From a virus, in IMG/VR virus record IMGVR_UViG_3300045988_131075, positions 93,671-157,670 of that record: 64,000 nt of DNA, one strand, 5' to 3'. Made by a program: the position numbers and the translations under genes. The notes under the pieces are model-generated. The model did no database searches. It was not told the DNA's origin and saw nothing but the letters and a program-made list of their open reading frames with translations. Shown here in pieces: positions 21,618 to 34,067 of this stretch (the stretch's first letter is position 1; every line of letters starts with the position of its first letter).

Positions 21618-22358
21618 GTGGTTTATTTGAAAATTGATTTAACAAATAAACAATGTGAAAATTTTAAAGTTATAAATCGAAATATTGAAAAAAAAGGTAA
21701 AAATGTTTGGTGGAATTGTCAATGTAAATGTGGTAAAATGTTTACAGCGACAACTACTGATATTAATAGAGGCATTATTAAATCTTGCGGTTGTATGAAA
21801 TCTGAATTATTAAGCAAAGCTCATCTACAAGATTTAACAGGAAAAACATTTGGAGAGTTATACGTAATTCGTAGAAATAAAGAAGCTCAAGTTAATGGGC
21901 ATAAAACTACAACTATGTATGATTGTCAATGTTCTTGTGGTAATATTATTACCGTAGAAAGAGGTAAATTAATATCAAGAGGTCAAAAATCTTGTGGATG
22001 TAAAAATTCTATTGGGGAGTTAAATATTAACAAATTATTAACTGATAATAACATAAATTATATTTCTCAGTATACAAATTAGAGCTTAAAAACTCAAAAC
22101 AACGGTTTTTTAAGATTTGATTTTGCTATACTTGATAAAGAAAACAATGTTATTCGTTTAATTGAATTTGATGGCCCACAACACACTAAAACAGTTGAGT
22201 ATTTTAATAAAACAGATTTATTAAAAGAAGTCCAAGCAAGAGATGAATTAAAAAATAATTATGCGAAAAATAATAGTATCCCTTTAGTAAGAATTCCTTA
22301 TTATAAAAGAGATACTATTAAAATTGAAGAATTATTAGGGGATCAGTTTTTAATCTGA
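21618..22358 (+). CDS. Zn-finger (W-x-C-Q-C-x-C-G modules) protein with DUF559/Vsr-like endonuclease domain (1 in-frame TAG)
   Basis: The only plus-strand gene. WWNCQCKCGK and YDCQCSCGN modules. Continues across TAG at 22080 into RFDFAILD..IEFDGPQH..LVRIPY. Confidence 0.55.
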
Positions 22359-22793
22359 TTCCCTTAATTCTTTTCTCACCCTCATTAAAATTTTCCCTAA
22401 TTTGTTATATGCCATTTTGTCTTGACATTTAATACAACGACAGACTCCCCAAGTATTATCGCACCAAGTATTTCCTTCTTCAAGCCAAGCTTCTCCGGTT
22501 TTCTCAAGGGCAGTCCGCAAAGTTGGGTTTTGTGTAAATTTAGCTTTTACGCCTTTATACATAACATCTTCTTTAATGTCTTCCCAGTCTTTACGAATTA
22601 CACAATGTCTTCCTAATCTCTTGGATTTGCCAGGAGTAGGAGCCAATCTAATTTCTTCTGCATCCCCGGGGTTCGCTGCTTTCATTGCCTGAAAATAGTT
22701 TTCTACCGTGAGATATCTTTTTCCTTCTATTGTAATTGGAGAGTAAAAAAAGTTGCTTAAAAAAGCAAAATCTCCTTCAAATTTATTAATCAT
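22350..22793 (-). CDS. NADAR (YbiA-like) domain protein
   Basis: FAFLSNFFYSP...ENYFQAMKA. Confidence 0.65.
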   Translation of the reverse strand: MINKFEGDFAFLSNFFYSPITIEGKRYLTVENYFQAMKAANPGDAEEIRLAPTPGKSKRLGRHCVIRKDWEDIKEDVMYKGVKAKFTQNPTLRTALEKTGEAWLEEGNTWCDNTWGVCRCIKCQDKMAYNKLGKILMRVRKELRESD

Positions 22794-23093
22794 TTAAATT
22801 TCCTCAAAGTTCTGAAGATCCAATTCGGCTAAATCTTCAAAATCAAAATCTTCATTGTCATCAATATTGACACCATACATTTCGGCGCCTTCTTTAAGAT
22901 ACTGTCTTCGGCCTTCCATATACCATGTCCAGTTATCAACGCCATCCCCTTCAAGAACGTTAAGCTCATTTTCAGCTTTAAGAAGTTCAAGAAGTCTTTC
23001 TTTAGAAACAATATAATTCATAATAATATCACCTTTCTTTTTATATAAATATTATATAATAATTTTTTAAAAAAATCAAAAAGGAGATAAGAA

Positions 23094-23636
23094 TTACTCC
23101 TTATCTCCTTTTTCTTGAATAAAAGTTTTAATTGGCTCGCTTACAAAACAGCAAATATCACACGCAACCTTTACTGATTCTTCTGGATCATGTTTCAAGT
23201 ATAACGCGGTTGTTGCATAAGGAGCGCCTGCTCCAATAGCAAAATAGTCTTTAATCTCTCTTACCATAAACTTACAAATATGGAAAAGATGTCCTTTATA
23301 GGCAATAAGAAATTCATTTCTTAGAAATCCATCACCAATAAGAGTATTTTTCCATTTTGAAAATTCAATAATGTAATTAAGAATTTCTCGTTCATTAGCT
23401 TCAACTGGCTGATGATTCTCCATATAAAGCCACATTAGACTTTGTTCATCACCATAACCAACTCCGCCAAGAATTATGTCGTTAATCTTAGCAATTTTAG
23501 CAAAATTAACATTAGGCTCCTTCTCATAGCCATTAGTAAGAATACTATCAGCACTCATTACAATTCTATCATCATAAACTTTAGCAGCGACAACGCTCAT
23601 TTCAATCCTCCAACTGACAGATATAAACATCTTCAT
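23094..23636 (-). CDS. Ntn-hydrolase, proteasome/HslV-like
   Basis: N-terminal SVVAAK (Ser nucleophile?) and AIGAGAPYA glycine-rich motif. Confidence 0.45.
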   Translation of the reverse strand: MKMFISVSWRIEMSVVAAKVYDDRIVMSADSILTNGYEKEPNVNFAKIAKINDIILGGVGYGDEQSLMWLYMENHQPVEANEREILNYIIEFSKWKNTLIGDGFLRNEFLIAYKGHLFHICKFMVREIKDYFAIGAGAPYATTALYLKHDPEESVKVACDICCFVSEPIKTFIQEKGDKE

Positions 23637-24097
23637 GATGGAGAATTTTTCTAATCATTAATTGAATAATATCCCAATCTCCTCCACCAAGACCACACCC
23701 AATTTTATAAGGAAAAGCAATTGGAACATAGCCAGGAACTAATTTATTTAAATTTTCTAAACAGCTAGCAAATGCTTCATAATTAGTATATCTACACGGG
23801 CCATATCCATAATCATATTGAGCAAATAAACTTGCTACTCTATGACCATCTACTGTAGTAGTGCAAGCAACCGCGCCAAGTAAAATGTCATCAGGCGGAT
23901 TTTCTAATCCTGCGATTTGCGCTTCCGCGTTTTCAATAGTTTTTTTATAATCTACATAGACTTCAGGTCAACGAATACGGATTTGTTTGGCAAGGCCTGC
24001 ACCCATAACACCTTGACAATTTACCTGATGACAAATTACAATTTTAGGGGATAAATCTAATAGACTTTTATTTTTATAATAGGTAAGATTTTTAACC
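23587..24097 (-). CDS. Macro domain protein (OARD1/TARG1-like), with one in-frame TGA
   Basis: VNCQGVMGAGLAKQIRIR-[TGA]-PEVYVDY...IAFPYKIGCGLGGGDW. Likely GTG start near 24097 after a GGAGA RBS. Joins track ORF 23968..24201 to downstream sequence. Confidence 0.5.
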
Positions 24098-33241: not shown

Positions 33242-33274
33242 ATTTTTAAAATTTACCTTTCTTTTTATTTTCTA

Positions 33275-33320
33275 TAAATATTATATATTATTTTTTTATA
33301 AAAATCAATAAAGAAAAAAT
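33275..33320 (-). promoter_or_regulatory. Sigma70-type promoter upstream of the MVP gene
   Basis: Member of the repeated family ..TATAAATATTATATATTATTTTTTTATAAAAATCAATAAAG. Confidence 0.5.
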
Positions 33321-33357
33321 GGGTTAGATATTTAATTAAATATCTAACCCATTAAAA

Positions 33358-34067
33358 TTACTTAATTAGATATTGATCTCCCATAATCATATCTAAAGTA
33401 ATATTATCGCGTTCCCAGTAAGGAATTCTCACTAAGGGAATGTTATGAGTTAAAGCATAATCATTTTTTACTTTATCTCGTTTTTGTGTAATTTCTAATT
33501 TTCCCCAAGCAGGAATTTCCATAAAATGTTGTTCGCCATCGAATTCAATTAAACGAACTACATTATTATCTTTTAATATAGCAAAATCATATCGGCTTTT
33601 TGGCAAATCATTAAAAGAATATTCATCAATAAAATCTATATTATTTTCTGATAATATAGATAAAATATTTGTCGCTCCTATTGAGCGATGATAGCAACCA
33701 CAAGAAACAGTTTGATTTCCATCTTTTCTTTTTAGACTTTGCCCTCTAACGGAAATTATTTTTCCACAATCACATTGACAAATCCAATATACTACTCCAT
33801 GTGGTTTTGTATTATCTCTTTCTAATACAGTTAATTTACCAAACCTTTGCCCCTCTAAATGATCTCTATGATTTTCATTACCTTTATATGTAAGCTCATT
33901 ACGAAGACAACCACAACTTTGAATTTCACCACGTCTTAAAGATGAGCTTTTTATACTTTTAATCTTACCACATTCACACTAACAAATCCAATAACTACCA
34001 CTTTTGGTTATTCTATTTGTATCTTTTTCTAAAACGGTAAGCCTTCCATATTTATTGCCTGTTAAAT
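33358..34067 (-). CDS. Zn-finger (W-I-C-Q-C modules) protein with DUF559/Vsr-like endonuclease domain (1 in-frame TAG)
   Basis: YWIC[TAG]CECGK and YWICQCDCGK modules, then RYDFAILKD..IEFDGEQH. Paralog of 21618..22358 but in inverted orientation. Confidence 0.55.

Follow-up and report, generated by a model that had tools for sequence, protein, structure and literature searches.

When two related nuclease genes face each other across a run of phage genes, it is natural to ask whether they carry that run with them or have each settled beside it independently. This question arises in a 64,000-nucleotide stretch of viral DNA (IMG/VR record IMGVR_UViG_3300045988_131075, positions 93,671 to 157,670), hereafter the window. 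Here, two nuclease genes, A and B, lie inverted to each other about 11 kb apart, and an earlier note made from the sequence alone took the genes between them for a recombination-prone accessory cassette. Together with two further genes, C and D, which share a cysteine-rich module with them, A and B are best explained as free-standing homing endonuclease genes, selfish elements of a phage lineage in which TAG has been recoded to Gln; we put the probability of this reading at roughly 0.8. In kind, they belong with the known Vsr-like/EDxHD and HNH homing endonucleases, as a variant that uses an uncatalogued cysteine module. The four genes neither define nor move the 11-kb block flanked by A and B. 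The limits first given for A stood, and those of the other three were corrected, as follows.

21618..22358, plus strand: gene A, 246 amino acids, GTG start; two modules and a predicted Vsr-like nuclease
33358..34101, minus strand: gene B, 247 amino acids; two modules and a predicted Vsr-like nuclease
37855..38406, minus strand: gene C, 183 amino acids; one module, a C..C/YC..C zinc ribbon and a predicted HNH domain
61791..62387, minus strand: gene D, 198 amino acids; one module, a zinc ribbon and a predicted HNH domain

The window is AT-rich (about 33% G+C), and its minus strand holds nearly all of its genes; gene A is the sole plus-strand gene in its region. The relatives used for comparison were a dozen IMG/VR contigs with 90–99% DNA identity to the window, and labels such as L098, L118, and L003 denote relative contigs or loci in that comparison. 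The presence or absence of A and B was read from blastn maps of the relatives against the window. Among GenBank phages, no megablast match to the region was found. All translations given here read TAG as Gln.

Insertion states, flanks and TAG codons of the endonuclease genes

Free-standing homing endonuclease genes are expected to be present in some close relatives and absent from others, and to leave diverged, co-converted sequence at their flanks. Both patterns were observed here. The segments concerned are these.

21547..22363, plus strand: mobile element A, 817 bp, exactly missing from 8 of 11 close relatives
22337..22364, no strand assigned: terminator-like hairpin where the 3' ends of A and NADAR converge
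22365..22480, minus strand: diverged NADAR 3' tract linked to A, scored as mismatches to the window per 40 nt
33367..34295, minus strand: mobile element B, comprising gene B, its own upstream hairpin and a replaced DUF2828 3' end
34102..34296, minus strand: B spacer; contains the hairpin of B (34142-34180) and, diverged, the final ~110 nt of the DUF2828 gene
37847..38468, minus strand: mobile element C, directly upstream of tRNA-Cys; exactly missing in L004/L116, L121 and L190
61716..62483, minus strand: mobile element D, directly upstream of tRNA-Ile(UAU); in 2 of 10 relatives only

Element A is present in 3 of 11 relatives, and its absence is clean at 91–97% nucleotide identity. For example, in L098-L105 the blastn maps join window position 22364 straight to 21546. 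Where A is lacking, NADAR ends with its stop codon directly against the start of a small membrane open reading frame (ORF). The inserted segment brings a new NADAR C-terminus and a convergent hairpin, the far strand of which encodes that replacement C-terminus (RESD, then stop). The last ~120 nt of NADAR show 6–12 mismatches per 40 nt in genomes without A versus 0–3 in those with it; over the first 320 nt, the closest relatives mostly show 0–2.

The B site has three states among 12 contigs. Three contigs hold B, five hold an unrelated 518-bp segment with a small ORF, and four have an empty 98-bp spacer. The last codons of B (ATT AAG TAA) coincide with the end of the DUF2828 gene in the empty allele. 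Over the last ~200 nt of that gene, genomes without B differ from the window at 10–18 positions per 40 nt, versus 0–3 further upstream; the diverged tract runs on to about 34390, and the point at which divergence sets in differs between genomes (L120 is an example). For A and B together, the adjoining 120–200 bp rise from 0–3 to 8–18 mismatches per 40 nt. Diverged flanks found only in genomes without the gene are what would be expected if the gene arrives by double-strand-break repair with a mismatching donor flank. Across 78 loci bearing the major vault protein (MVP) gene, the B site is filled in only 5, and members of the A/B family are scattered over many positions. Relatives also carry extra family members at two other intergenic sites of the block, window 26063/26064 and 27510/27531, the former with two different occupants.

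Element C is cleanly gone in three relatives and, in most others, falls within larger replaced or deleted segments. Genomes with A but not B, with B but not A, and with neither were all found: A occurs alone in _118370 and _124399 and B alone in _126226, and neither is found in most relatives. The earlier note had proposed a comparison of synteny with related phages, and in that comparison endonuclease content varies strongly, contrary to the lack of variation by which the note's reading would have been refuted.

In the mechanism that we propose, the N-terminal module, in one or two copies, would read the DNA target and the C-terminal nuclease would cut it. The nuclease would be a Vsr-like PD-(D/E)xK enzyme of the I-Bth0305I/EDxHD type in A and B and an HNH enzyme in C and D. 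During co-infection, the enzyme would cut an endonuclease-less allele close to its own insertion point, in or beside the 3' end of NADAR in the case of A and of the DUF2828 gene in the case of B. Repair would then copy the endonuclease gene and a short flank from the donor genome, leaving a diverged flank that would resist further cutting, and full-length translation would rely on the phage suppressor tRNA. Selfish endonucleases in phages are established biology; the useful part here is an abundant undescribed module and a clean series of alleles. The near-identical gut-phage genomes amount to a natural experiment, in which single homing endonuclease genes are seen in filled and empty states with visible conversion tracts. 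Target sites are therefore directly predictable and testable.

The suppressor tRNA (anticodon CTA) is one of 13–15 tRNA genes in the window, in which many ORFs stay intact only with TAG as a sense codon. There are one, one, two, and five in-frame TAG codons in A, B, C, and D, respectively, and these ORFs are unbroken only if TAG is sense; the module shows up only under a Gln reading of in-frame TAG. From ~17 to 37.6 kb, A and B are the sole genes with an in-frame TAG; C, D, and a GIY-YIG gene described below (57863-58618) have 2–5 each. TAG was read as Gln throughout because it sits at conserved Gln positions and relatives mostly carry CAA or CAG there. In B, for example, TAG is codon 41, inside the C-Q-C motif; the metagenomic protein P0001, 96% identical to B, has Gln at this place. 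The near-invariant Gln191 position is likewise encoded by TAG in one relative. In close relatives, CAA or CAG stands most often at the TAG sites of the window, and Tyr, Ser, and Leu codons stand at none of them. Given the in-frame TAG codons in the endonuclease genes, the suppressor tRNA is required for full-length proteins. In A, the TAG (codon 155) falls right at the boundary of the module region and the nuclease domain, and all three 99%-identical copies have it. Without suppression, the product of A would stop just past its two modules, at 154 residues, and nuclease production may be restricted to the phase when TAG is decoded.

The suppressor tRNA locus (window 57769-57858, minus strand) itself has two very different forms among close relatives. 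One, in the window, L192-L194, and L196, is 90 nt long with a 17-nt extra arm; the other, in L195 (6473-6545) and L198 (9580-9652), is 73 nt long with a different acceptor stem. Replacements at TAG sites are biased toward Gln codons (CAA/CAG), which does not account for the long-arm form.

The cysteine module and its nuclease partners

The module spans ~60 residues, with a hairpin G-x-x-F-G-x-L-T-V followed by W-x-C-x-C-x-C-G and then S-C-G-C, and five Cys are invariant across the aligned copies. Six-frame translation of the window yields six matches to the motif [WYF]xCxCxCG, versus 0.02 per shuffle (100 shuffles). A hidden Markov model (HMM) trained on metagenomic modules alone, none of them from the window, placed six domains, all within four ORFs (domain E 1e-10 to 2e-34), and gave nothing further in the window at E ≤ 10 when a fifth module-bearing gene was sought. 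Consequently, four genes bear the module rather than the five counted in the earlier note, which was right about the module itself and about one or two copies per gene.

21636..21806, plus strand: module A1, domain E 1.1e-10; N-terminal hairpin degenerate; CQCKCG...SCGC
21831..22007, plus strand: module A2, hmmsearch domain E 1e-11
33892..34068, minus strand: module B1, hmmsearch domain E 1.4e-26
33676..33861, minus strand: module B2, hmmsearch domain E 2e-34
38221-38382, minus strand: module of C, domain E 8e-16
62208-62372, minus strand: module of D, domain E 1e-18

Neither Pfam nor NCBIfam has a model for the module; PHROG families 374 and 559 ('HNH endonuclease') span it. The number of proteins matched by the module profile among 1.84 billion cluster representatives (50% identity clusters) was 96,495 at E ≤ 1e-3; at E ≤ 1e-10 it was 30,595. 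A single protein may contain as many as 13 copies. In the related loci that were fetched, 1–4 copies are joined to a Vsr-like, HNH, HNH_3-type, or GIY-YIG nuclease. Within the cluster library the module is also joined to HTH_3, to an MTES_1575-type restriction-endonuclease domain, or to a superfamily 2 (SF2) helicase, and some proteins contain it without a nuclease. Matches to the Pfam CSL zinc finger PF05207 (E 0.0066–0.017) and to CapR PF21817 (best E 0.03–0.1) came from single sequences only and lay below cutoff, and the DUF723 and DUF4379 models gave no significant match. A profile search of the PDB with the module alignment returned nothing significant, with DPH3 at E 0.63; hhalign gave a probability of 6% for the module against human DPH3.

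To judge from its cysteines and the domains joined to it, the module probably binds zinc and reads the DNA target. A bolder version, which we hold only tentatively and consider rather doubtful, is that it is an unrecognised, very abundant nucleic-acid-reading repeat with its own fold, combinable as a 'beads-on-a-string' code, and that TAG ties nuclease production to the phage's own suppressor tRNA. If true, TAG inside these selfish genes would limit when and in which genomes homing occurs. Defining the module would allow better annotation of tens of thousands of phage proteins now labelled "HNH endonuclease" or hypothetical, and it might supply a new modular DNA-binding scaffold.

The nuclease domains of A and B align with each other as follows.

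22014..22355, plus strand: nuclease domain of A, RFDFAIL ... IEFDGPQH ... RDELKN ... PLVRIPY; aligns with that of B
33361..33675, minus strand: nuclease domain of B; D172, E186, D188, H192, D209 and K212 invariant in 40 homologues

Over their full length, A and B share 40% amino-acid identity, in keeping with the inverted paralogs first described. The nuclease domain of A matches PHROG 9084 ('homing endonuclease') at 1.4e-23; in both proteins, the C-terminal domain is covered by this family and by PHROG 7140 ('intron encoded nuclease'). The fold had been named DUF559/Vsr-like. Pfam DUF559 gave no match to A or B at E ≤ 1, so that half of the name is dropped, and the Vsr-like half is retained at the level of fold. 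The nearest Pfam family, DUF2726, matched A at 3.6e-5, under cutoff (23.9 bits for A and 18.7 for B; cutoff 24.7). An AlphaFold model of the nuclease family, made with the sequence of P0001 (96% identical to B), reached a predicted local distance difference test (pLDDT) score of 87.8, and on this predicted structure the assignment of the A and B nuclease to a Vsr/I-Bth0305I variant of the PD-(D/E)xK fold holds at fold level. When A, B, and 38 homologues are compared, the putative catalytic residues (D, E-x-D, H, D-x-x-K) do not vary. Their order and spacing may be those expected from Vsr (PDF...HGCFWH...D). B is 38.5% identical (E 2e-6) to a gene of Klebsiella phage Muenster that is annotated 'homing endonuclease EDxHD' and for which its annotators report an HHpred probability of 97% to 3R3P; this indirect route is the sole sequence-level link from B to that structure. 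An A/B homologue is located within the intron-split terL gene of Staphylococcus phage SEP1, and this SEP1 protein joins DUF4379/CapR-type fingers to the same nuclease domain as A and B.

As to C and D, family-model matches place both in the HNH endonuclease class, as had been proposed. D scores 21.7 bits with Pfam HNH (cutoff 21.4) and 22.8 with HNH_3 (cutoff 24.8). C matches Pfam HNH weakly only, matches PHROG 2255 ('HNH endonuclease') at 8e-27, and has a visible EFHH...N...CANCH motif. The original view of homing-endonuclease-like genes in which a shared modular domain is fused to differing nucleases is borne out.

Several known systems invite comparison. Like A and B, members of the I-Bth0305I/EDxHD family (PDB 3R3P) have N-terminal DNA-binding repeats and a C-terminal nuclease, and they are phage-borne and free-standing or intron-associated. 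I-Bth0305I binds DNA by two NUMOD/helix-turn-helix motifs (Dassa et al. 2009, PMC2677866; Taylor et al. 2011, PMC3239194), whereas A and B would use two Cys-rich modules. Unlike I-Bth0305I, A and B are intergenic rather than within an intron or intein, and similarity at the sequence level was not detected. The Seg, Mob, and Hef genes of T4-like phages are selfish genes that lie between other genes, come and go among close relatives, co-convert their flanks, and are located in tRNA arrays. A–D resemble these genes in patchy presence, flank co-conversion, and tRNA-array location. However, the free-standing endonucleases of T4 are GIY-YIG or HNH enzymes with NUMODs, and A–D use different combinations of nuclease and DNA-binding domain; they also reside in a TAG-recoded gut phage and, unlike T4 genes, contain TAG sense codons. 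NUMODs, which Sitbon and Pietrokovski reportedly described in 2003 as nuclease-associated modular DNA-binding domains, are (types 1–4) helical or beta motifs without a Cys cluster. The concept of small DNA-binding units combined with GIY-YIG, HNH, and Vsr-like nucleases is the same, but the module is a separate, Cys-based unit. In T5orf172 homing endonucleases, 'beads-on-a-string' zinc-finger DNA-binding regions are shuffled between nuclease classes (Barth, Dunham & Seed 2023, PMC10448857). Those fingers (CapR homology, DUF723, DUF4379) and the present module are alike in being repeated and shuffled among nuclease classes, but family models give no significant match between T5orf172/CapR-type fingers and the CxCxC...CxC module.

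The 11-kb block and other readings of the genes

Pfam confirmed the genes that had been listed between the paralogs: NADAR, a macro domain, an RNA ligase, a metallophosphatase, an RlaP-type nucleotidyltransferase, and an MVP homologue. DUF2828/DUF7788 lies just beyond B. Blocks of genes with endonuclease genes at their boundaries have been proposed, as a hypothesis, to form homing endonuclease gene (HEG) islands (Barth et al. 2023, PMC10448857). Applied here, A and B would jointly mobilise or invert the 11-kb block as cargo, by two-sided cutting or by mutual recombination. It fits this idea that A and B belong to one family and flank the block, as endonuclease genes do in the proposed islands, and that the more distant L001 keeps DUF2828 and, in the same place after it, a B homologue, while other genes replace MVP and its neighbours. 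The ~6 kb that follow the B homologue in L001 encode Pyr_excise, a NadR-like protein, a nicotinamide mononucleotide (NMN) transporter, and a sigma factor, and synteny resumes at the phosphatase/Band_7 genes. However, all relatives, those with A, B, both, or neither, are collinear with the window from 22.4 to 33.3 kb, and this stretch is 91–97% identical where either or both are lacking; its presence does not track the endonucleases. Identity within the block is not higher than outside it, and DUF2828, MVP, nucleotidyltransferase, phosphatase, RNA ligase, and NADAR are kept at 45–80% amino-acid identity in about 70 more distant contigs. A and B, at 40% amino-acid identity, have as their longest inverted DNA matches 47 nt at 85% and 88 nt at 74%, and no inverted arrangement of the block was seen in 20+ loci. 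On this low DNA similarity and on the synteny, recombination between A and B as inverted repeats is rejected. Collinear and conserved clade-wide, with L001 as the one clear exception, the block is therefore a conserved module of the phage group and not an accessory cassette; A and B are independent insertions beside it. The island prediction fails for this block, for which the published hypothesis is thus unsupported, though it may apply over longer timescales. We regard joint mobilisation by A and B as very unlikely.

The genes might instead be retained for a benefit to the phage, which could use them to fight related phages in co-infection (marker exclusion) or to degrade host or competitor DNA. 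Homing endonucleases do bias the inheritance of neighbouring genes, as T4 SegB does for its tRNA region, and here C and D adjoin tRNA genes whose content also varies among relatives, with several family members gathered in one genome. Against a conserved function stands their patchy, low-frequency distribution among near-identical genomes, in which the GIY-YIG gene is unique to this one; such a distribution fits selfish spread and loss. No link to defence-system genes was seen, and we consider a phage benefit unlikely. Some copies could also be domesticated or inactive DNA-binding regulators, with unsuppressed A yielding its two-module product of 154 residues. There is a precedent in the satellite protein CapR, whose origin is the DNA-binding domain of a homing endonuclease (Barth et al. 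2023, PMC10448857), and both the occurrence of the module with HTH_3 or without nucleases and the conserved position of the TAG in A, precisely between modules and nuclease in three 99%-identical copies, would suit such a role. However, the putative catalytic residues are invariant in A, B, and 38 homologues, the phage has a suppressor tRNA and uses TAG in many genes, and the genes behave as mobile elements, so that we give the regulator idea scarcely any credence.

A number of points weigh against selfish homing endonucleases as the explanation, or against parts of it. Kinship of the A/B nuclease domain to Vsr and I-Bth0305I rests on predicted structure. Searches of the PDB by phmmer and hmmsearch with B, the family alignment, and the Muenster EDxHD protein returned nothing significant, and hhalign of the A/B family against E. 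coli Vsr gave a probability of 0.2%. For the module, metal and DNA binding are read from the conserved Cys and the fusion partners. Module B2 modelled alone had only moderate confidence around the SCGC knuckle, and no structural relative was found with the module model. The putative cleavage sites are placed only by where divergence concentrates, and presence and absence could partly reflect deletion rather than gain.

Two further observations concern the block. The macro-domain gene (window ~23650-24110, minus strand) has an in-frame TGA at about 23968-23970 (R-stop-P-E-V-Y), where Trp would presumably suit the surrounding sequence. TGA terminates 12 other genes in the region, and L198 has a tRNA(TCA) at 10931-11010 that the window is without. 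The gene could be a pseudogene or reflect read-through or partial TGA recoding. Several block genes are preceded by a recurring AT-rich element, TTGATT-N16-17-TATAAT set in TATAAATATTATATAATA-like sequence (21292-21319, 23038-23084, 26437-26471, 30650-30683, and 33265-33308). These elements are probably phage promoters, and they account for most short inverted and direct repeats of the region.

Other endonuclease genes, tRNA arrays and variable regions

Of the seven nuclease-domain genes in the window, six have the layout of homing endonucleases, so the earlier count of at least seven homing-endonuclease-like genes applies to nuclease domains in general; several do lie inside tRNA arrays, as had been noted. 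Two of the six are without the module.

57863..58618, minus strand: GIY-YIG homing-endonuclease-like gene with 5 TAG, adjoining the suppressor tRNA; no CxCxC module
40451..40897, minus strand: helix-turn-helix (HTH) and HNH endonuclease gene without the module; missing in L003/L113

The GIY-YIG gene has a C..CGK...YC..C zinc ribbon, unlike the module and common to C and D, and is missing from all 10 relatives examined. Between it and tRNA-Val, about 790 bp (window 58619-59411) have no ORF of at least 45 codons on the coding strand and no Rfam match; the part from 58705 to 59411 is kept in relatives. The product of the seventh gene (window 1314-2327, minus strand) has a membrane segment at its N-terminus, a long coiled coil, and a GIY-YIG domain at its C-terminus, a layout atypical of homing endonucleases; the gene contains 4 in-frame TAG.

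The tRNA arrays are mosaic among relatives. For example, tRNA-Ile(UAU) (window 61708-61783) is found with D, alone, or not at all in L192-L198, and the Arg UCU, Thr AGU, Asp, and second Met tRNAs likewise come and go. In L003, a 455-bp insert (4221-4675) interrupts the tRNA-Gly UCC gene immediately 3' of the anticodon, equivalent to window 39488/39489. Its ORF, which fills nearly the whole insert, encodes a PD-(D/E)XK endonuclease of the I-Ssp6803I family (PF11645, E 6e-25), and an Rfam search for a group I ribozyme in the insert found none. The anticodon loop of tRNA-Lys(UUU) (window 38932-39071, minus strand) is split by 68 nt that L003 is without. This insert, which has an acceptor-like stem (GATGAAA/TTTCATC), a T-arm-like hairpin, and a GCCA end, is too short for a group I intron; Rfam scored the locus as a tRNA and ARAGORN missed it. 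A RAGATH-33 RNA lies in the same tRNA/endonuclease region (window 40148-40276, minus strand; Rfam 126.8 bits, gathering score 120.4).

A second variable island lies beside C (window 35717-38469; L118 3571-6059; L119 4750-8356). An Eco57I-type DNA methylase (35844-37022) and an adjacent 203-amino-acid gene are replaced there in relatives by a 388-amino-acid protein with a terminal HNH-like motif, different methylase-like genes, and a possible restriction enzyme; in other relatives, the methylase region is deleted altogether. Elsewhere, a 3-kb segment (window 13966-16921) is gone from L082, L083, L101, and L103, which have about 10 bp instead. It contains a 430-amino-acid ORF, a Cys/Gly-rich protein of 234 amino acids, and two small ORFs.

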